A stretch of 64,000 nucleotides of DNA from Thermoplasmata archaeon (GTDB lineage: Archaea > Thermoplasmatota > Thermoplasmata > Lutacidiplasmatales > UBA184). The stretch's first letter is position 1. Each line of letters begins with the position of its first letter. Shown in pieces: positions 7,950 through 63,729 of the stretch. The stretch covers positions 4,560 through 68,559 of the forward strand of contig JAKABH010000002.1 in NCBI GenBank assembly GCA_021801925.1, written 5' to 3'. The notes below the pieces were generated by a model that did not search any database, was not told the DNA's origin, and saw only the letters and a list, made by a program, of their open reading frames with translations. The position numbers and the translations under genes were made by a program.

Positions 7950-8351
7950 TCAGCCGGTCGTGACGAGATAGATCGCGAGCCCCACCCCGATGGCGACCAT
8001 GGTGAGGGTGAGCGCCCACTCGAGGGCGGTATGGACCCGATACTCTCCCGCCTCCAGCTCCTGCCGCGCGGTGCGGAACCGGGCGAATCCGAGCAGGAGC
8101 ACCGCCGCGCCCGCGAGGACGAGCAGCACTCCGGTCGCCTCGGAAAGGGGGGCTGGGGCCGCCGTTCCCACCGTCCCGCCCGAGAGTTCGCGAAGCAGCA
8201 GGCCGAATTTCGCGACCACGAAGCCGAACGCCATGATCGTGATCGCCGTCCGTACCCATGCCAGAAACGTACGCTCGTTGGCAAGATGGTCCGTCGGCGA
8301 GGCGCGATGGACCGGCCCGGCCGCGGCGTCGGCATGGTCCGTTCCGCTCAT
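7950..8351 (-). CDS. DUF202 (YidH-like) membrane protein
   Basis: LANERTFLAWVRT signature followed by three hydrophobic helices. The 267-aa ORF is trimmed to ATG 8351. Confidence 0.75.
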   Translation of the reverse strand: MSGTDHADAAAGPVHRASPTDHLANERTFLAWVRTAITIMAFGFVVAKFGLLLRELSGGTVGTAAPAPLSEATGVLLVLAGAAVLLLGFARFRTARQELEAGEYRVHTALEWALTLTMVAIGVGLAIYLVTTG

Positions 8352-8868
8352 CGCCTCCCCACGGACACGCGGGCCGTTGATGAAGGACGCGGTCGAGCCG
8401 CGGACCCGCCGCCGGCGTCGCCACCGGGGGCCGGAACACCCCGCCTCATTTTCGCCTCGGGCGGGCTCGAGCCCAATCCCGCGCGGGTTCGGAACGTGGC
8501 GGTCGCGGTCCGGATGCCGGCCGCCCCGCAGGCGACGGGCCCCTGCCTCCGGTCGAGTTCGAAGGCGACTCGGCCTCGGACCCGGCGATCCGTCGGACCC
8601 CGGCGCCGCTGTCGATCCGGACCCCCTCCAGCGAGAGCCGTCCCCCCCTGGCGAGATCTCGGGCACTTCCCCGGGGGGGAGACGGGGAGCAGAGTCGAGC
8701 CCATTTGCCGAGCCCGCGCGGGCGCCTAAACATGGCGTGTCGGTTCCCGACATTCTGACCCCACTTCTTCCCGAAATTATGGCCCCCTTTCTACCTCGAA
8801 CGGGGGTGGCGCCTCATGACGGACATGTATCCCCCCAATCCTCGGTCACTTCGGTGGGAGGGCCCCCA

Positions 8869-9615
8869 GTGTACGACCGAGTGAAGCGCCACGAGATTCT
8901 CGTTCTGCGTCGAGCGGGCCTGACCCTGCGAGAAGTCGCACGGAAGGCCGGTGTGGGTGTGAGGACGGTCCAACGCATCCTCCAGCAGGGTGACCTCGAC
9001 CCTCCGTCACGACACGCTGTCGGCCGGCCTCCGGTCGCGGTGGCCTTCGAAGAAGAGGCCCGACGGATCCTGGCGACCGACGGGGAACTACCGACCGTCG
9101 AGGTCCTCCGTCGGCTACGGCAGAACGGCTACTCGGGAGGCAAGAACCCAGTCTACCAACTGGTCCGTCGCCTGCGAGCTACGGTGACCCCTCCGTTGGT
9201 GAGGTTCGAGGGCGTCGCCGGAGAGTTCTGTCAGTGCGACTTCGGCCACGTACGGGTCCACTACGACGACGGCACCGAGGAGCTGCTCCACTTCTTTGCC
9301 GCTCGGCTGAAGTGGTCGCGCTGGGTGCAGGTCGAACTCGTTCCCAACGAACAGGTGGAGGCGCTGGCCCGGTCGCTGCTCGCCGCCTTCGCCTCCTTCG
9401 GGGGCGTGCCCCTCGTGGGCGTCTTCGATAACCCGAAGACGGTCGTGATCTCGCGCCAGGGCGGCCAGATCCAGTGGAACGACACCTTCGCCCAAGTTGC
9501 CCTCGACTACCGCTTCGCCCCCGAGCTCTGTACGCCGCGCCGCGGCAACCAGAAGGGGAGTGTCGAAAATCGGGTGGGCTTTGTGAAGAACGGGTTCTTC
9601 AAAGTCCGCCGGTAA
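8869..9615 (+). pseudogene. IS21-family transposase IstA, C-terminally truncated, no istB
   Basis: N-terminal HTH (GLTLREVARKAGVGVRTVQRIL). First two DDE acidic motifs are present (CDFGHV, VFDNPKT), but the ORF stops at FFKVRR before the third catalytic residue. No IstB ATPase gene follows. Confidence 0.8.
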
Positions 9616-9848: not shown

Positions 9849-10907
9849 TTAGTCGTGCGACGGTCGGGGAGGCCTCGCAGTACTTGCACTGCAGCTCGGC
9901 CGCTCTGGAGCGTGAGGGAGATAGGGAGTTCCCCGTTTCAGGATTGCGTAGACCACTCTGAGGAGGGCATGTGCGGTGTCGATCGCGCCGCGCTTCGCCC
10001 CCTTCCGGCGACCACTCCGCCGGCCTACCCGGGCGATGTAGCTCGTTCGTGACTCTCTCCGGTGGGACCAGCCAGCCTCCACAAGGACCCAGCGAAGAAG
10101 GTGATTGCAGTCCGCCTTGAGGGAGCCGTGGTAGGAGTGGTTCGCTGACTGGTGGGTCGAGGGGCACAGCCCGCAGTAGGAGCTCAGTTCGTCGAACGAG
10201 CGAAAGCGCTCAATGGGACAGAGGAAGGCCACGAGGATGACCGCAGTGAGCTCTCCAATCCCCGGGATGGTCTCCAGCAGTTGAGCCTCTTCTGATCTCA
10301 GGTAGGCGGCGTGGATCGCCTTGTCGAGCTCCTTAGTGGCCCCCGAGAGGTCCTCCAGCCGGTCCAACCCCCGATCGACCTCGGGGATTCCCAGCTCTCG
10401 GAGGCTCTCTCGACGCCGCGCCCGCATCAGAATGCCCTCCTCATAATCGACGCCTTTCCCGAACAGCTGAGCGTAGGTGTGGTTGGCCACTGACTTGTTC
10501 TGCTTCCGGTAGAACACCCTCTCCCGAACCAATCGACGCAGCGCGCGAGTATCGAGGTCGGGAACGAAGGCTGTGGGCAGCGCGTTCAATCGGAGTAAGG
10601 TCGCCAGCGCTTCGGAGTCCACTTTGTCAGACTTCAGACTCGCATCGGCGATCAAACGGGTCCGAAAGGGGTGGGAGAGCACGACCTGGGCGCCCGCCGA
10701 TACGGCCGCATCGTGGTAGTGCTCCCACACCGAACACGCTTCGAGCGCGACCCGCTTGGATCCCGGAAGCGTGCGAAGGTAGTCCACCAACTCCTGATCG
10801 GAGGACCCGAGCTTCACTTGACTCAACCTCCGGCCAGAGGCGTCGAGGGCTGTGGCTACGACGAGGTCCTTGTGCACATCCAATCCGACGAAGGTCTCTG
10901 CTTCCAT
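9849..10907 (-). CDS. IS110-family transposase (DEDD recombinase)
   Basis: N-terminal FVGLDVHKD (DEDD_Tnp_IS110 signature), central IPGIGELTA (Transposase_20 helix-hairpin-helix). Start at MEAETF (10907) or at 10961. Confidence 0.9.
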   Translation of the reverse strand: MEAETFVGLDVHKDLVVATALDASGRRLSQVKLGSSDQELVDYLRTLPGSKRVALEACSVWEHYHDAAVSAGAQVVLSHPFRTRLIADASLKSDKVDSEALATLLRLNALPTAFVPDLDTRALRRLVRERVFYRKQNKSVANHTYAQLFGKGVDYEEGILMRARRRESLRELGIPEVDRGLDRLEDLSGATKELDKAIHAAYLRSEEAQLLETIPGIGELTAVILVAFLCPIERFRSFDELSSYCGLCPSTHQSANHSYHGSLKADCNHLLRWVLVEAGWSHRRESRTSYIARVGRRSGRRKGAKRGAIDTAHALLRVVYAILKRGTPYLPHAPERPSCSASTARPPRPSHD

Positions 10908-11011
10908 GGGGCGTCTCCGAGGGGAAGGGAGGAGACGCCCCGCTTGGGTCTTCCGTGGCATCGAGCGGAGGGTAACATGTCTTCTTTCCGGAGTTCGCCT
11001 ATGCCCTCGCC

Positions 11012-12127
11012 ATGGTGGTCCGGGTCCGCCCGATCACGGATGACGAGGGCAATCGACTCCGACGGATCGTTCGCCACGGGCAGAACGCCATCGAGGTGAA
11101 GCGCGCCCAGGTCATTCTCTGCTCCGCCCAGGGGTTCACCCCTCCGAAGATCGGCCTCTCCGTCCTCATGAGCGAGGACTACGTCCGACGGCTGATCCAC
11201 GAGTTCAACCTCCATGGGTTCTCGATGCTCAAGCCCCACTGGGGACCGGGACCGAAGGCCAAGTTCTCGGACGAGCAGCGCGATGCGCTGGTGGCGCTCG
11301 CCAGCAGCCGTCCGAAGGACCTTGGGCTGCCGTTCACCCAGTGGAGCCTCTCCCGCCTCCGGAAGGCGGCCATCGATCGCGGAGTGGTCCCGTCGATCAG
11401 CGAGGAGTGGCTGCGGGTCATCCTCCTCGAGGCCGACCTCAGTCACCAGTCGTTGCGGACGTGGAAGAAGAGCACCGACCCGGAGCGGGAGCTGAAGAAG
11501 GAATACATCGAGAAGCTCACCCGGCAGCCGCACAACCCCCCGGTCGTACTGAGCGCGGACGAGATCGGACCGATCCAGCTGGTGCCGCAGGGCGGCGCGG
11601 GGTGGTTCCCGCGCAAGACGCCGGGGCGGATCCCGGCCGAGTACCCTCGGGAGTTCGGGACGGCCTACTACTTCCTGATGTTGAACGTCTACCACCAGAC
11701 CCTCTCGGGGCAGGTCTATCGAACCAAGCACTCCACGAACTGGCAGGAGTTCGTGGCGGAGGAGCGGGCGAAGTATCCCCTCGATCAGCCGGTCTACCTG
11801 ATCCAGGACGGGCTTTCCACGCACTGGACCCCGGCGGTGCGCCAGTGGGCGCGGGAGCACGAGGTGATCCTCGTGCCGACGGCGACCCACGCGAGCTGGA
11901 TGAACCCCGTGGAGACCCATGCGAAGGGGATCGAGGAGCTGGCGCTCCCCGGGACGGAGTTCACCTCGGTGGGGGAGCTCGGGGAGGCGCTGGACCGAGC
12001 GGTCGAGTACCGGAACGAGGAGCGGAAGGCGCGAGGGAAGAGGTTCCGGGACACGGTACGCGCCGATCGACGGCACGCGTCCAAGGTGCCCCTCTGGCTG
12101 CGGGCTACCGTACCCGATGTTTCCTGA
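11012..12127 (+). CDS. IS630-family transposase (apparently intact)
   Basis: HTH/winged-helix N-terminus, DDE_3-type core (VLSADEIGP ... YLIQDGLSTH ... SWMNPVE). 371 aa, uninterrupted. Confidence 0.88.
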   Translation: MVVRVRPITDDEGNRLRRIVRHGQNAIEVKRAQVILCSAQGFTPPKIGLSVLMSEDYVRRLIHEFNLHGFSMLKPHWGPGPKAKFSDEQRDALVALASSRPKDLGLPFTQWSLSRLRKAAIDRGVVPSISEEWLRVILLEADLSHQSLRTWKKSTDPERELKKEYIEKLTRQPHNPPVVLSADEIGPIQLVPQGGAGWFPRKTPGRIPAEYPREFGTAYYFLMLNVYHQTLSGQVYRTKHSTNWQEFVAEERAKYPLDQPVYLIQDGLSTHWTPAVRQWAREHEVILVPTATHASWMNPVETHAKGIEELALPGTEFTSVGELGEALDRAVEYRNEERKARGKRFRDTVRADRRHASKVPLWLRATVPDVS

Positions 12128-56849: not shown

Positions 56850-57888
56850 ATGGGCCGATGGGCACAGCGCCATCGGGGTGCCGCCACCCTCGAAGAACGT
56901 CGATTGACGGGCCTCGCGCTCCTGCACTCCGGCCACTCGCAGGCCGACGTCGCTCGCCGCCTCGGAGTTACTCCCGTAGCGGTGTGTCACTGGAAGAGTG
57001 CCCTCGACGAAGGCGCCCCGCGGCGCTGCGCGCCATCCCTCGGCCCGGCCGGCCCCCGCTGGTGTCGAAGGACCACCAAGCCGCTCTCCCCGAGATGCTC
57101 GCGAAGGGAGCGCTCACCTACGGGTTCTCCACCGACCTCTGGACGAACCCACGCATCGTGAAGGTCGCCGAGGCCCAGTGGGGAGTTCGGTACTCCGAGA
57201 CAGCGATGTGGCGGATGCTCAAGCGCCACGGACTCTCCTGGCAGCGGCCTCGGAGGCAGGCCCGAGAGAAGGACCTCCGGGCCGTCTACAACTGGCGCCG
57301 TCGCTCCTGGCCTCGCTCTAAAAAAAACCCCGACACCGAAGAGCCGTAGTGGTCTTCGTGGACGAGAGTGGGTTCTCTCTCATCCCCTATGTCGCGAAGA
57401 CCTGGGCCCCCGTTGGCCAAACCCCGGTGCAGATCCACCAAGGACTGTGTCCGAAGTTCTCGGCGATCAGCGGCGTGACTCCCCCATGGAAGCTCTACAT
57501 CCAGGTCCACAAGGACACGATCGCCACCGACCAGCCTGTGGAGTTCCTCCAGCATCTCTTGCGACACATTCGCCGGCGACCCATCATGGTCTTCTGGGAC
57601 GGAGGTCGTCCCCACCACTCTGACGAGACTCGCGCCTTCCTCCGAGCCCACCCTCGGATCGAGGCGCAGCGGTTTCCGGGCTACAGCCCCGAGCTCAACC
57701 CCGATGAGTAGGTCTGGAGGCACCTGAAGAACCACGAACTCGCCAGCTACGCTCCGCACGACGTGAAGGAACTGAGCCGGGAACTCCGGCGTGCGGTCGT
57801 TCGAATGCGGGTCCGGCCCAAGCTGCTCTGTTCGTTCGTCGCGGCGACTCACCTCTACGATTCAGCACCTGACGACGGTGCGGGATGA
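56850..57888 (+). pseudogene. IS630-family transposase, disrupted (one indel, one A8-run frame change, one in-frame TAG)
   Basis: The HTH (frame of 56820) joins the frame of 56858 near 57015-57030 (...LDEG|PAALRAIPRPGRPPL). The frame changes again at A8 57320-57327 into VVFVDESGF. TAG at 57709-57711 lies inside ...SPELNPDE*VWRHLKN. Confidence 0.8.
57320..57327 (+). repeat. A8 homopolymer (slippery run) inside the IS630 remnant
   Basis: The only long homopolymer I saw in the window. A -1 slip here joins ...WPRSKKK to PRHRRAVVVFVDESGF. Confidence 0.85.
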
Positions 57889-58388: not shown

Positions 58389-58712
58389 ATGAAGGGTGTC
58401 CTCTCTGTCCTGGGTAAGAAGAGGGCTCTGGACGTCTTGGACTTCCTTGAGTCCGAACCGCGGGGCGCACGATTCATCGACGTCCAACGATGGGCGGTGA
58501 ACGGGGTTCCATCGGTCACGACAGGCCTACTCAAGGACCTCAGGCAGTGCGGCGCAGTCGTCCGCGATGGCTCCGGGGACCTGCCCAGATACCGGATCAC
58601 CGACGCTGGAAAGGAGGCACGAACACATCTACACCAAGCCCTCGCCGCGCTGCATGGTGCGCGAGACAAGCGCCAGCCTCGTCAGGATTTGAGGAGAAGA
58701 ATGGGAGGGTGA
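58389..58712 (+). CDS. Small winged-helix DNA-binding protein
   Basis: LGKKRALDVLDFLESEPRGARFIDVQR...LKDLRQCGAVVRD...RYRITDAG follows a wHTH (HxlR/MarR-like) pattern. Trimmed to ATG 58389. Confidence 0.6.
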   Translation: MKGVLSVLGKKRALDVLDFLESEPRGARFIDVQRWAVNGVPSVTTGLLKDLRQCGAVVRDGSGDLPRYRITDAGKEARTHLHQALAALHGARDKRQPRQDLRRRMGG

Positions 58713-59494
58713 ACTGCGTGAAGGACCAGTACTTCGGTGACGTGAACGATTATCGCAAGTTCGGGCTTCTAAGGGGGTTGACCAGTGAGAGAGACCTTCG
58801 GCTGTCTATTTGCTGGGCACTGACCCGCTCAGATGGGCGGACTGACGGGTCCAAAACTCAGTACCTCGAGAACCCGAGCATCTGGAGGAGATTCGATCCC
58901 GAGCTCTTTGCCTTCCTTCGGCAACAGGTGGTCGATCGCGGCGACCGCCGAGTGGGTGCCATCGAAGGCACGCGAGTGCTTGGAGACTGCAACTTTTTCA
59001 GCGAGACCCTCCCGCGAGAGGAAGCGGCTCGAGACGGCTACTTCGAGAGACTTTGCGACCTTGCCGCCCGCACCGATCTCGTGTTCTTCGACCCAGACAA
59101 TGGCCTAGGTGTCAAGTCGACACCGAGAGGATGCCCGAACTCTGAGAAGTACGTGTACCCGTCGGAACTGGCGTCCGTCTTCTCACTGGGACCATCGATT
59201 CTCCTCTACCAACATTTCCCGAGGAGGCCACGAACCCAGTTCACCCAATGGTTGGCACGCTCACTTTGTGAGTTGCTTGGAAGCGAACGGGCGGTGGCCT
59301 TCATTACACCCCACGTGCTCTTCCTCCTCGTGCCGAACCGTCGTCACTGGGCCGCACTGAGGGCGGGCGCCGAGCGGGTCGCTGGGAGATGGAGCGGCCA
59401 GATTGGAGTGGTCCACCTCAGTCGACTTGGGAATCTCCGCCCGGTCCCATTCGATGCCTTTGGGCCCCGCGAAGCCGCCCCCGTTGCGGCGTGA
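58709..59494 (+). CDS. Hypothetical protein with GDVNDYRKFGLL and FFDPDNG motifs
   Basis: GTG 58709 overlaps the wHTH stop (GTGA). 261 aa, protein-like composition. No family recognised with confidence. Confidence 0.6.
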   Translation: MNCVKDQYFGDVNDYRKFGLLRGLTSERDLRLSICWALTRSDGRTDGSKTQYLENPSIWRRFDPELFAFLRQQVVDRGDRRVGAIEGTRVLGDCNFFSETLPREEAARDGYFERLCDLAARTDLVFFDPDNGLGVKSTPRGCPNSEKYVYPSELASVFSLGPSILLYQHFPRRPRTQFTQWLARSLCELLGSERAVAFITPHVLFLLVPNRRHWAALRAGAERVAGRWSGQIGVVHLSRLGNLRPVPFDAFGPREAAPVAA

Positions 59495-59505
59495 GATCGC
59501 CGGGC

Positions 59506-60189
59506 CTATGCGCTCCAGAGCGGTCGAACGAGGCTTGATGGCTGTTTCCACCCTGCGCAGACTCTAACCTCCGCGGACGCCGCAACCGATAGCACGTTTT
59601 CCACCCCCCGGTCCACCGCCACCTCGACGACCTGTCCGGATTCAGGGAAGCGATCTATTGCCTGGAACGTGTCCGCCCCCCTCGGTGGCGGATCCTCCCC
59701 GTTAGCGCGCCTGAAAGTGCTGCCGGAGTTCATCGAGGTGAGCGCGATCCGGGCGGAGCACTGATCGAGCAGCAACCGCGTGTTCACCTTCAGGACGACG
59801 TGTTCAAAACCTCTGTAGAACTTCGCTCCGAGAAGCATCTCGAGCCGAGACCACTCCGCCCAGAAGAACACCTTGGCATTGATCAAGCGATACCAGTCCT
59901 CCACAGACATCCCCTGCTCCAGCAGGGGGCGGAGCTCGGCCGGGGGCATGGGTTGCTGGTCCCGGATCCAAGCAGGGGGAAGGCCTGTCTTCTCGATCTT
60001 GACCATCGCTGGCCTCCACCTGGACTCGATCAGCTCCCTGCGCCCTCCAGTGTATCCGTAGAGGTCAAGCAATGCGGAAGTGCTGAGGAGCCCCCTGGCC
60101 TGTATCCCGGGCCAGTTCGGGACCTCGGCCATATGGTAGAGAGTCGGGTAGCGCTCTATCAGCACCCCAATCCTCAAGCTCCCTCCCAA
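59506..60189 (-). CDS. Putative ADP-ribosyltransferase-fold protein (DarT/DUF4433- or DUF7002-like)
   Basis: N-terminal LYHMAEVPNWPGIQARGLLSTSALLDL and C-terminal QVVEVAVDRGV resemble the H...E elements of DarT-type ARTs as I remember them. Start is TTG 60189 (16-nt overlap) or GTG 60165. Confidence 0.55.
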   Translation of the reverse strand: MGGSLRIGVLIERYPTLYHMAEVPNWPGIQARGLLSTSALLDLYGYTGGRRELIESRWRPAMVKIEKTGLPPAWIRDQQPMPPAELRPLLEQGMSVEDWYRLINAKVFFWAEWSRLEMLLGAKFYRGFEHVVLKVNTRLLLDQCSARIALTSMNSGSTFRRANGEDPPPRGADTFQAIDRFPESGQVVEVAVDRGVENVLSVAASAEVRVCAGWKQPSSLVRPLWSA

Positions 60190-61784
60190 GCTCTCCGGTC
60201 GATGACGCTGCGGTGGTTGAACCCGACTGCCACCATTGTCACGGGAACTCCCGCGACGCGGCCCACCTCGTCGATGAACTGTATGGTCTCCTTGGAGAGT
60301 TGGTCGAAGCGGACGGCCCTCCTATTTCCCGAGGTGATGTAGTCAGCAAACGTCAGCGCGATGTCGGTCGCGCCGTTCAGGAGCGAGGCTCGATGCAGGA
60401 GAGCCCAATCGAACTCGCCGACCCTCCTGCGGCGATTCGTGGTCGAAGTTCGCTCGTGCTGTCTGAGTTCATCGACCGGAATTCCAGACCGCCTGGAGAT
60501 CTCGGCCCAGCCGATCTCGTTCAGTGGACCTGACGTGCCTCCCTCGGGACTCTGCACTCGGATAGGGTAGGTTCGGACGACCATCAGAACGCGACGTACC
60601 CACTTCGGTGGTATGCCAGCCTCGGCAAGACACCCTCCTGCCGTCGTGTCGCGGCTCGTGACGAACGGAAACTCCCCGTGGTAGATGCTCAGCCCGGTCC
60701 CCTGGGTCCCTTCAAGGAGGACGCGCCTGCCGTTGAGGTAGGCATCCTCGAGCTGTGTGAAGGCGTCTCCTAGAAAGGGCTTGAGCTCCGGGACCGCCCC
60801 AGCCAGACGGGTCGTGGAGTTTCGCCCCATTATTCGGCGCGCGGTCGCAGCGCCGGTGCCGCTCCCCGTCGAGCCGATATCTTTCTTCAGCTTCAGCTCG
60901 TCATGGATGTCCTTGGGGTCGATTACCATCGCATTGCGGTCGATGACGAGCCGTTGGGCGTCCACCTGACAGTCGGCGATCTCCTGGAGCAGCTTTGGGA
61001 TGTTGAGGACGGCCCCCGGGCCAATCAGCAGCTTCGCTAGGGGGTTGTACCTTGTCCCAGAAGGAAGCTGGTGGTGCGTGTACGGTGGATTGCCGAAGAC
61101 CTTGTGCCCCGCGTTTGGCCCCCCCACGCGGACCAACAGGTCGTACTCGCGCGCGATGTAGGATGCGATTTGGCCCTTTCCCTCGCTACCGAATTGTCCG
61201 CCGACGACGACGTCCACGTACCCTAGCCCCTTGTGGGGGTGCGCCCGGATCAGGCTGGCGGCGCGAGCGGCGACATCCGCCTCGGTACAACGGTCCGTGT
61301 CGATGACCGCGTCCGCGAGGTCCCGGAGCGTCTCCACTTGGGCCTCCGTGGGATCGGCCTTCGCCTGGGCATATGTAATGGCCATGTCCTTCGATTGCTG
61401 ACGGCGCTTAGCAAAACGCATGGCGAGGACCTCAGGAGGGGCCGTCAGGTGGATGTGTACGACTTTGGACCCAAACGCCTCCCGGAGGGCCCTCACTTGG
61501 TTCTCTATCCGCACGGCGTCCACCACGATGCACGTGCCTCTGTCCTCTTCGCCCAACCATCGGTAGAGCTCCTGCACCACCCATCTTCCCCCGGTCGACT
61601 TGTCCAGGTCCGCGCCTCGTTTCTGGAGCAGCCTTCGGTCGGAGATTGGCACCCGCATGATCCGCTTCGTTAGAGACTCCTTAGTCCTGAACACCGACAT
61701 CTGGTAGCGGTCCTCCAGGCGGCGGGCAAGCGTCGACTTGCCGGAGTAAATCTGTCCCGATAGGGCGATGATTCGGTCAGCCAC
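60174..61784 (-). CDS. Fusion protein: N-terminal P-loop kinase-like domain + C-terminal adenylosuccinate synthetase (PurA)-like domain
   Basis: Kinase P-loop ALSGQIYSGKSTLA (res 7-20). AdSS motifs GGQFGSEGKGQ, GGPNAGH, GSTGSGTGAATARR, LLEGTQGTGLSIYHGEFPFVTSRDTTAGG, TSTTNRRRRVGEFD. GTG start overlaps the upstream stop by 8 nt. Confidence 0.85.
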   Translation of the reverse strand: MADRIIALSGQIYSGKSTLARRLEDRYQMSVFRTKESLTKRIMRVPISDRRLLQKRGADLDKSTGGRWVVQELYRWLGEEDRGTCIVVDAVRIENQVRALREAFGSKVVHIHLTAPPEVLAMRFAKRRQQSKDMAITYAQAKADPTEAQVETLRDLADAVIDTDRCTEADVAARAASLIRAHPHKGLGYVDVVVGGQFGSEGKGQIASYIAREYDLLVRVGGPNAGHKVFGNPPYTHHQLPSGTRYNPLAKLLIGPGAVLNIPKLLQEIADCQVDAQRLVIDRNAMVIDPKDIHDELKLKKDIGSTGSGTGAATARRIMGRNSTTRLAGAVPELKPFLGDAFTQLEDAYLNGRRVLLEGTQGTGLSIYHGEFPFVTSRDTTAGGCLAEAGIPPKWVRRVLMVVRTYPIRVQSPEGGTSGPLNEIGWAEISRRSGIPVDELRQHERTSTTNRRRRVGEFDWALLHRASLLNGATDIALTFADYITSGNRRAVRFDQLSKETIQFIDEVGRVAGVPVTMVAVGFNHRSVIDRRAWEGA

Positions 61785-63528: not shown

Positions 63529-63729
63529 TTATCGCCGTCCGCGGCGGCTTCCGCTCCCTGAGAAGAAGTTGATAACGATTACCACCGCTGTCAGCCCGAA
63601 GACCGCAGCGACGACTTCCACGATGTAGCCTGTGAACTCAAGGAGGACTGACGGGAGGAAGAACGCCACGAAAATGAAACCTACAATCAATACGAGAAGC
63701 ACCGTGACGATTCCGTCCCACTTGTTCAT
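63529..63729 (-). CDS. Possible small two-TM membrane protein (66 aa)
   Basis: IVTVLLVLIVGFIFVAFFL and VVAAVFGLTAVVIVINFF, with a basic C-terminus. AT-richer codon usage like the surrounding island. Confidence 0.4.
   Translation of the reverse strand: MNKWDGIVTVLLVLIVGFIFVAFFLPSVLLEFTGYIVEVVAAVFGLTAVVIVINFFSGSGSRRGRR

Follow-up and report, generated by a model that had tools for sequence, protein, structure and literature searches.

A probable PurZ-like homolog of adenylosuccinate synthetase, fused to a kinase, in a mobile cassette with predicted ADP-ribosyltransferase and macrodomain–protease partners

A 64,000-nucleotide stretch of the Thermoplasmata archaeon contig JAKABH010000002.1 (assembly GCA_021801925.1), hereafter the window, contains on its minus strand a gene that joins a P-loop kinase domain to a homolog of adenylosuccinate synthetase (AdSS, the product of purA). 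The gene lies between one for a protein with an M78 metalloprotease and a macrodomain and one for a DUF7002 protein. With good confidence, the AdSS homolog is assigned as a PurZ-like, non-housekeeping domain of a distinct kinase-fused clade, which forms the core of a mobile three-gene cassette with ADP-ribosyltransferase (ART) and macrodomain–protease partners. An earlier reading of this DNA (the original prediction) had singled out the domain on account of a substituted aspartate in its catalytic loop and missed the decisive context, namely that the gene shares a conserved operon with genes for an M78–macrodomain protein and an ART that resembles DarT.

In the fusion protein, the Pfam family Adenylsucc_synt (PF00709, E 5.7e-55) is found C-terminal of an AAA_18/AAA_33 P-loop kinase domain. 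An HMMER search of the PDB sequences places the short AdSS of Pyrococcus horikoshii first (5k7x/2d7u, E 4e-51, approximately 37–38% identity). The motifs of the PurZ-like domain are GSEGKGQ, NAGH, the aspartate loop TSTTNRRRR, TFAD and an insertion, RVQSPEGGTSGP. Asp13 (as base) and His41 (as acid) are catalytic in E. coli AdSS, in which the TKLD and SxGP motifs bind guanine. The strings quoted in the original prediction (GGQFGSEGKGQ, PNAGHK, FVTSRDTTAGG, TSTTNRRRRVGEFD, LTFAD and AVGFNHR) are all present in the translation of 60174..61784 (minus strand), and the translation of 61167–61205 on the same strand, VGGQFGSEGKGQI, contains Ser200 at the codon that had been given for it. The prediction had also placed this serine at the aspartate position and named a structure-guided alignment as the check; HMMER pairs GGQFGSEGKG with GGQWGDEGKG of P. 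horikoshii, and the MAFFT alignment does place Ser200 at Asp13 of the E. coli enzyme.

Residues were compared in E. coli numbering in a MAFFT alignment with 43 fusion representatives, and conservation was additionally examined in 31 full-length homologs with 56–79% identity. Serine occupies position 13 in 42 of the 43 representatives; in all 31 homologs Ser200 is invariant, together with the NAGH histidine, the T-F-x-D motif, the C-terminal G-F and the Walker A motif of the kinase. Because of this invariance, the substitution is not a chance one. The residues E14, K16, N38, H41, T129, Q224, T239, V273, R305 and D333 are retained in 40–43 of the representatives, T301 in 37 and R303 (as R or K) in 39, so that the earlier statement that the NAGH histidine and the aspartate-loop elements are kept is borne out by the equivalents of His41, Lys16, Gln224, Thr300/301 and Arg303/305. 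The changes relative to E. coli are D13 to S, K18 to Q/N/H, G298 to T (33 of 43; TSTT in the window), K331 to F and S-T-G-P to (S/A)(T/V)GF, which is the C-terminal consensus of the fusion family. Additionally, 7–8 residues are inserted after V273 (RVQSPEGGTSGP in the window, compared with RVGAGP in PurA), an insertion longer than that of PurZ.

Among the guanine-recognition elements, Asp481 (Asp333 in E. coli) is invariant and is of the guanine type found in PurA and PurZ0, not the Gln/Asn of the ATP-using PurZ; Lys331 is replaced by Phe, and S-T-G-P by A-V-G-F. The original prediction correctly noted that LTFAD has lost the lysine and kept the aspartate, but the loss is not peculiar to this protein, since Lys331 is also missing from archaeal PurA and PurZ0: the motif reads TMLD in both P. 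horikoshii AdSS and phage PurZ0, and T(K/H)xD in other archaeal-type short PurA. The C-terminal SxGP element, described as not evident, is indeed altered; however, it is degenerate rather than absent, as A-V-G-F aligns with S-T-G-P.

To our knowledge, PurZ (N6-succino-2-amino-2'-deoxyadenylate synthase) is known only as a phage enzyme, which serves to replace adenine with 2-aminoadenine (Z), and the phage DNA thus escapes host restriction. The conservation of Asp13 reaches 99% in PurA, whereas 100% of phage PurZ and PurZ0 have Ser instead; in a few archaeal relatives the residue is Ser or Gly (PMC12884076; PMC8515928). The substitution in the window protein is therefore a hallmark of PurZ. In the PurZ of phage S-2L, the substrate contacts unique to the enzyme are S23, T273 and Q308 (equivalent to D13, G298 and D333). 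T273 sits at the tip of the loop that binds aspartate, Q308 recognises adenine in ATP and would be in steric conflict with a 2-amino group, and the preference for deoxyribose is partly attributed to an insertion after a conserved Val, near C2' of the substrate (PMC8342488). Two of these three equivalents are present in the window protein (Ser at 13 and Thr at 298), and the third stays Asp as in PurZ0, an intermediate between archaeal PurA and the ATP/dATP-using PurZ (10.1101/2025.10.22.683976). A GTP donor for PurZ0 is implied in 10.1101/2025.10.22.683976, whereas in PMC12884076 the preference between ATP and GTP is stated in the opposite sense.

A comparison with phage PurZ and PurZ0 (PDB 6FM1, 7ODX and 7VF6; 31–33% identity) reveals a common short archaeal-type scaffold, Ser in place of Asp13, Thr at 298, the insertion after Val273 and Phe at the Lys331 position, with Asp333 kept as in PurZ0. 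However, the fusion has its own clade, is always joined to a kinase and is mostly cellular; its P-loop ends in Q/N/H and its C-terminal element in GF, whereas those of the phage enzymes end in K/L and GP, and its partners are an ART and a macrodomain rather than DatZ, MazZ, DutZ or DpoZ. With the archaeal short PurA (5K7X/2D7U; PRK04293), its best overall sequence match, the domain shares the same two deletions relative to bacterial PurA in addition to His41, Lys16, the Asp loop and Asp333, but differs from it in Asp13 to Ser, Gly298 to Thr, the extra loop after Val273, the kinase and an accessory, mobile occurrence.

The scores of the domain fall below the NCBIfam cut-offs for archaeal AdSS (PRK04293, 276 versus 368), PurZ (207 versus 300) and bacterial PurA (TIGR00184, 206 versus 396). 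A neighbour-joining tree of 123 domains with 100 bootstraps was calculated, in which phiVC8, an Acinetobacter phage, PurZ0 (Wayne) and a Bacillus phage homolog served as phage references. The kinase fusions form one clade, with phage PurZ, PurZ0 and the Bacillus phage homolog outside it in 93 of the 100 bootstraps and the GDEGKG-type PurA in 97. The basal positions are taken by E. coli PurA and the archaeal-type sequences with GDEGKG, and all Ser-type sequences group together in 76. Clustering inside ordinary archaeal PurA, which the original prediction had named, in combination with being the only purA of the genome, as an outcome that would speak against it, did not occur. Its question of whether the protein belongs to a PurZ-like or a new branch finds an answer on both sides, in that the fusions fall in the Ser-type, PurZ-like superclade and yet form a separate, mostly cellular, kinase-fused branch.

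A search with the domain alone (HMMER) yielded 626 representatives at E <= 1e-30. Nearly all of the best 150 of these carry GSEGKG, either fused (~500–560 aa) or stand-alone (~340–370 aa), and GDEGKG is found in three. Dozens of stand-alone GSEGKG short AdSS homologs occur in metagenomes (e.g. P0318, P0340 and P0385) and belong neither to the fusion clade nor with the PurZ of the reference phages. Judged from these sequences, the diversity of predicted PurZ-like enzymes much exceeds the characterised set.

The fused kinase noted in the original prediction is conserved throughout the fusion clade. Its Walker A motif, SGxxxSGKS, is invariant in the family, as are the kinase residues G10, G15 and K16. 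The domain matches a PHROG deoxynucleoside monophosphate (dNMP) kinase (3e-7), guanylate kinase (5e-4) and the AdkA-like SSO1041 (E 0.02) and, weakly, the kinase part of the models for anti-phage dCTP deaminases (PADLOC 1e-6, NCBIfam 4e-4). Deep variants with an N-terminal extension long enough to score all carry a P-loop kinase, and one has two in tandem. The fusion resembles the AvcD-type anti-phage dCTP deaminases in the combination of an N-terminal P-loop kinase-like domain with an enzyme that modifies the base of a DNA precursor, but the enzyme is of the AdSS/PurZ ligase type, its target is presumably a guanine nucleotide, and it has the additional ART and macrodomain partners. No PADLOC model matches the PurZ-like domain or DUF7002; the kinase and M78 parts alone are matched.

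Structures were predicted for the two partner proteins. The AlphaFold 2 (AF2) model of the DUF7002 protein has a mean predicted local distance difference test (pLDDT) score of 97, and its top Foldseek match is E. coli DarT1 with NAD (8baq, E 3.6e-5) with a template-modelling (TM) score of 0.43–0.46, followed by the A subunits of cholera and pertussis toxins, other DarT and Tpt1. On the basis of this model, the protein is predicted to fold as a DarT-like ADP-ribosyltransferase, with the conserved residues H19, F108-F109-W110 and E189; it differs from DarT in its Pfam family (DUF7002, not DUF4433) and in motif II, which is FFW and not Y. In the upstream protein, a HEIAH peptidase and a sensor-like domain (residues ~10–290) precede a macrodomain (residues ~295–437). 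The peptidase matches Pfam Peptidase_M78 (1e-10) and PADLOC capP (1e-21), HEIAH is invariant, and the N-terminus of the AF2 model (pLDDT 85.5) superposes in Foldseek on PprI/IrrE/CapP over ~260–297 aligned columns. The protein accordingly has the CapP/IrrE-type pattern of an M78 HExxH peptidase with a C-terminal sensor domain. The macrodomain matches 2fg1 and S. coelicolor 5e3b (TM 0.87–0.91, 35–39% identity), then TARG1, Poa1p and DarG, with TM scores of 0.78–0.91 across 2fg1, 5e3b, TARG1 and DarG, and its fold is certain as modelled; DarG models match the protein weakly (22–25 bits versus an NCBIfam cut-off of 250). From these partner folds, the cassette appears to combine a DarT-like writer and the kinase–PurZ-like enzyme with a sensor-type protease that is joined to a reader or eraser of ADP-ribose.

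Table 1. Coordinates of the kinase–PurZ-like fusion gene, its parts and the adjacent genes in the window.
Feature	Position	Strand	Basis or remark
Kinase–PurZ-like fusion ORF (open reading frame), 536 aa	60174..61784	-	Translation; GTG start
PurZ-like short AdSS domain, aa 186–536	60177..61229 (stop codon extra)	-	351 residues, C-terminal
(d)NMP-kinase-like P-loop domain, aa 1–185	61230..61784	-	N-terminal; Pfam AAA_18/AAA_33
Ser200 codon (= E. coli AdSS Asp13)	61185..61187	-	HMMER and MAFFT alignment; translation
M78 metalloprotease–macrodomain protein, 460 aa	61777..63159	-	Pfam, PADLOC, AF2, Foldseek
DUF7002 protein with predicted DarT-like ART fold, 227 aa	59506..60189	-	Pfam DUF7002 (3e-54), AF2, Foldseek
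Fourth gene, unknown family	58547..59494 (ORF 58490..59494)	+	Convergent with the operon

The arrangement was examined in 83 independent loci, and the nearest neighbours (121 genes from 62 loci) were scanned with Pfam. The M78–macrodomain gene lies directly upstream of the fusion gene in 71 of the 83 loci and DUF7002 downstream in 77. Gene order and strand are constant, whereas the genes beyond the cassette vary from locus to locus. In the window, the GTG start of the fusion shares 8 nt with the stop of the upstream gene, and the start of DUF7002, which across the loci follows the fusion gene at a median offset of -1.5 nt, overlaps the fusion stop. No recurrent helix-turn-helix gene that could be a CapH/DdrO-type repressor partner is present among the neighbours of the 83 loci. 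The 121 nearest neighbours include the defence components Gabija GajB, IetA, MADS, DRT and restriction–modification, as well as transposases.

Like DarTG, the cassette encodes an ART that best matches NAD+-bound DarT1 together with a TARG1/DarG/ALC1-like macrodomain, in a mobile context that includes defence islands. However, it has three genes instead of two, the gene for a putative nucleotide-modifying enzyme separates those for the macrodomain protein and the ART, the fusion partner of the macrodomain is an IrrE/CapP-like M78 protease in place of the C-terminal domain of DarG, and the ART belongs to DUF7002 (H/FFW/E).

Homologs of the fourth gene adjoin the cassette in 16 of the 83 loci; they are ~250–315 aa long and have the N-terminal motif QYFGDxNDYxKxxLLR. 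With matches up to E <= 1 admitted, Pfam, NCBIfam, PADLOC and PHROGs gave no credible hit for the family, and an EABR match of the homolog in locus L001 (15.6 bits, E 0.013) was rejected as spurious. A 66-aa predicted membrane ORF (63529..63729, minus strand) lies just upstream of the M78–macrodomain gene and recurs in the near-identical loci L091 and L094 but not in distant ones. Departures from the usual arrangement were also observed. In a Nitrososphaerota metagenome-assembled genome (L059), two divergent fusion copies (8001–9587, plus strand, and 10366–11970, minus strand), each ~52% identical to that of the window, flank a single DUF7002 gene. Three Dehalococcoidia loci (L011–L013) have no M78–macrodomain gene. 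Their upstream side holds the fourth gene and a DUF7002 homolog, both on the opposite strand, and their downstream side a DCD gene; L011 additionally has a weaker DUF7002 match downstream.

With one genome per species scanned, a relative was found in at least 566 of 185,579 species genomes, in Dehalococcoidia, Acidobacteriota, Planctomycetota, Verrucomicrobiota, Actinomycetota, Proteobacteria, Thermoplasmata and Nitrososphaerota. Fusion copies with 44–47% identity are plasmid- or megaplasmid-borne in Rhizobium, Agrobacterium, Sinorhizobium, Burkholderia thailandensis and Ralstonia, bacteria that presumably have a chromosomal purA. These plasmid versions hold the enzyme–ART pair only, without a macrodomain gene. 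They are annotated in public databases as "adenylosuccinate synthetase" with a purine-biosynthesis Gene Ontology term, an annotation that is probably wrong and inflates the apparent copy number of purA. The matches on E. coli plasmids were discarded, as they are canonical purA on chromosome-sized records and not the fusion. Plasmids of Rhizobium leguminosarum (H56–H58, e.g. NZ_CP030762.1, 121649–122683) carry another short PurA-like gene, with ~30% identity, which adjoins folE (GTP cyclohydrolase I) and recalls the 7-deazapurine (toyocamycin-type) pathways; it is unrelated to the cassette.

In the archaeal window, the stretch from 58 to 64 kb that holds the cassette has a GC content of 62–63%, compared with 71–75% in most of the remaining window, and DDE_3/HTH_33 transposase fragments (56858..57711, plus strand) border it, which is consistent with a horizontally acquired island. 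Genes for TFIIB and SAMP2 lie near the cassette. A homolog search of the 64 kb found no separate purA homolog, as the original prediction had stated for canonical purA at the scale of the window. The view that the protein is not an ordinary archaeal PurA also gains support, because the domain scores below the equivalog cut-offs and falls outside the GDEGKG clade, its distribution is accessory and copies are plasmid-borne.

Part of this association has been described. A survey of Legionella ARTs (BMC Genomics 2025, PMC12522546) reports "Lmac_3114", a DarT-like ART with the motifs Hxx, FFW and xxE, whose family has an AdSS domain in 60% of its neighbourhoods, with the pairing known from Rhizobium, Mesorhizobium and P. 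aeruginosa; the P. aeruginosa version has an AAA and a NUDIX domain as well. Because the ART motifs and the ART–AdSS operon match, this is very probably the same system as the DUF7002 cassette. The survey reads the partner as an ordinary AdSS that modulates the supply of purine or NAD+ and proposes a regulatory link between ART and AdSS, whereas Ser13 or a PurZ-like nature, the M78–macrodomain partner, archaeal members and the conserved kinase fusion (AAA being given only for P. aeruginosa) do not appear in the text available. With respect to that text, the ART–AdSS linkage is known since 2025, whereas the PurZ-like nature and the three-gene architecture had not been noted. The literature searched contained no mention of DUF7002, nothing on adenylosuccinate together with DefenseFinder, nothing relevant on AdSS as an anti-phage factor and, on PurA-like proteins, just announcements of phage genomes.

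Copies on viral contigs bear on a possible role in deoxynucleotide metabolism. Relatives are present on 217 IMG/VR contigs, 8 of them as full fusions, of which 3 have the ART and 2 of these also M78–macrodomain. Four fusions lack both partners (L096–L098 and L101; 3300037264_005663, 3300043398_000289, 3300033067_002286 and 3300025133_000326). The first three lie in phage replication modules with a family-A DNA polymerase with 3'-5' exonuclease, a helicase, a replication initiator, an exonuclease and a dNMP kinase, and L101 has an NDT-like DUF4406 gene as its sole identified neighbour. Genes for PolA, a dNMP kinase or an NDT-like protein occur only beside the fusion copies of viral contigs. The presence of the fusion in phage replication modules ties the enzyme to deoxynucleotide metabolism. 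In the neighbour-joining tree, the four viral copies nest within the cassette clade (a placement without support values), and they possibly represent undescribed Z-genome phages with a kinase-fused PurZ.

The published route to dZTP runs from PurZ through host PurB to GMP kinase (10.1101/2025.10.22.683976). Two of these steps, the first and the third, would fall to the fusion, which is circumstantial evidence but consistent with the making or diverting of purine deoxynucleotides. PurB-like lyase genes lie next to the cassette in 3 of the 83 loci, where a rough estimate gives ~0.3 by chance, and may be chance housekeeping purB or functional partners. All three are from Dehalococcoidia and 1–3 kb from the cassette (L014, 10956–12293, plus strand; L021, 10449–11792, minus strand; L052, 3318–4814, minus strand); that of L014 runs in the same direction as the fourth gene and overlaps its end. 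Genes for DCD (dCTP-deaminase/dUTPase-like, PF22769) follow the cassette in 7 of the 83 loci (L001, 11038–11958; L010–L013; L082; L084), after the fourth gene in 5 of the 7, and no DCD homolog is present in the window. By analogy with DutZ and MazZ of the Z phages, such a neighbour could act as a dNTP diphosphatase.

Taking these results together, the most likely reading, which we favour over its rivals, is a predicted PurZ-type (d)GMP–aspartate ligase joined to a (d)NMP kinase, which would be the nucleotide-altering part of a DarTG-like mobile conflict system. The original prediction was that the domain probably ligates aspartate or a similar amine with altered chemistry or a changed preference for NTP and substrate. 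Ligation of aspartate to a nucleotide is a reasonable reading, because the binding residues for aspartate, for the 5'-phosphate of the nucleoside monophosphate and for the phosphates of the NTP are all conserved, and so is a shift in substrate; the retained Asp333 argues against a changed NTP preference. Ser at 13, Thr at 298 and the PurZ-type insertion next to Val273 point to a 2-aminopurine acceptor, most likely dGMP, and Asp333 points to a guanine-nucleotide donor as in PurA and PurZ0. Taken as one claim, ligation of aspartate to (d)GMP with a guanine-nucleotide donor is tentative, its likelihood falling a little short of even.

In the proposed reaction, the guanine-nucleotide donor would phosphorylate O6 of a 2-aminopurine mononucleotide, likeliest dGMP, and L-aspartate, held by the TTxRxR loop, would then take the place of the phosphate, yielding N6-succino-2-amino-(d)AMP. 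The kinase domain may either feed (d)GMP from (d)GDP or phosphorylate the product after a PurB-type lyase step. When the cassette fires, the PurZ-like enzyme would drain or rewrite the pool of dG/dA precursors (dGMP to succino-dZMP to Z nucleotides); the conserved gene order suggests that the ART would be a writer or toxin and the macrodomain an eraser or antitoxin coupled to the sensor protease. Such a division of labour, in which the enzyme is an effector that depletes dG nucleotides or makes succino-dZ/Z, the ART writes or is the toxin, and the macrodomain–protease erases or senses, is possible but doubtful. DarT1, the best structural match of the ART, is reported to target the 2-amino group of guanine, a group that is also present in Z. 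A bolder and rather unlikely extension is that cells, including archaea, wield PurZ chemistry as a weapon: upon infection, conversion of dGMP to succino-dZ/Z by the kinase–PurZ-like enzyme would deplete dG precursors or load invader DNA with 2-aminoadenine, the DarT-like ART would then act on the altered DNA or pool, and the macrodomain would protect self.

Several points weigh against the favoured reading. Which nucleotide the ligase takes (dGMP, GMP or XMP), which NTP is its donor and what the kinase phosphorylates are each deduced from residues. The plasmid versions have no macrodomain gene, and a simple DarT/DarG toxin–antitoxin logic therefore misfits. Defence genes are found in a minority of the neighbourhoods only, and DatZ, MazZ/DUF550, DutZ/DmtZ and DpoZ are neither among the 25 commonest Pfam families of the neighbours in the 62 loci nor among the genes of the window. 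Additionally, the domain is below the curated PurZ cut-off and outside the clades of phage PurZ and PurZ0, and the trees are neighbour-joining only, with Ser-type monophyly supported in just 76 of 100 bootstraps.

Alternatively, the fusion could generate a signal, turning an infection-specific nucleotide (e.g. dGMP from the degradation of host DNA) into an unusual succinylated or phosphorylated purine nucleotide, which the macrodomain or a GAF-like M78 module would sense to switch on the protease and the ART. Macrodomains bind ADP-ribose-like nucleotides, the partner has the architecture of the IrrE/CapP sensor proteases, and the gene order is tightly conserved; by analogy with nucleotide-signalling defence, a kinase and a ligase in one chain would yield a product foreign to normal metabolism. 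However, the two-gene plasmid versions exist without the putative sensor, and the occurrence of the same fusion in phage replication modules without a receptor is a better fit to bulk nucleotide metabolism, and we consider signal generation unlikely.

The best structural match of DUF7002 bears on another possibility, namely that the ART and the macrodomain, instead of attacking invader nucleic acid, reversibly ADP-ribosylate the fusion enzyme (or vice versa) in the manner of DraT/DraG, so that a toxic activity stays off until triggered. This match is to the DNA-modifying DarT1, followed by Tpt1, with protein-modifying toxins weaker, and regulation of this kind is quite improbable, although a single operon encodes writer, eraser and enzyme, the smallest unit conserved on plasmids is the pair of enzyme and ART, and PMC12522546 likewise proposes a regulatory link between ART and AdSS.

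It is very improbable that the island is a provirus or virus remnant in which the fusion is a PurZ that supplies the virus with dZTP for 2-aminoadenine DNA of its own. In favour of this, PurZ signatures are present in the domain, and the four IMG/VR fusions without ART and macrodomain, three of which lie beside family-A polymerase or replication genes, are nested in the clade. However, the window and ~90% of the 83 cellular loci have the ART and the macrodomain–protease and not DatZ, MazZ, DpoZ or structural genes, full-length fusions account for just 8 of the 217 viral-contig relatives, and the flanking genes vary by locus. That the protein is the functional AdSS of the archaeon (IMP, Asp and GTP), with a tolerated Ser variant and an adenylate-type kinase for AMP to ADP, can be practically dismissed: PRK04293 is its best single model and P. 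horikoshii AdSS its best PDB match, Asp333 and the Asp loop are kept, and no other purA homolog lies in the window, but Asp13 is 99% conserved in PurA with Ser specific to PurZ (PMC12884076), the score is under the equivalog cut-off with GDEGKG archaeal PurA outside the clade in 97 of 100 bootstraps, and the gene has a patchy distribution among the species genomes scanned, which extends to accessory plasmids, and sits in a low-GC island beside transposase remnants.

The cassette suggests an uncharacterised virus–host conflict system, in which a sister branch of PurZ with the same catalytic signature is hard-wired to a nucleotide kinase and embedded in a cassette that is widespread in bacteria and archaea. 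The homologs in culturable Rhizobium, Agrobacterium, Burkholderia thailandensis and Ralstonia make the question directly testable. If the favoured reading is true, host-side formation of succino-dZ/Z or drainage of dG would be a new chemistry for nucleotide-based immunity, would link ADP-ribosylation systems to the remodelling of purine nucleotides and would bear on the origin of phage Z-genome biosynthesis. If PurZ chemistry is indeed wielded as a weapon, it would represent a new antiviral principle and would suggest a common origin of phage Z-genome biosynthesis and a host immune module.

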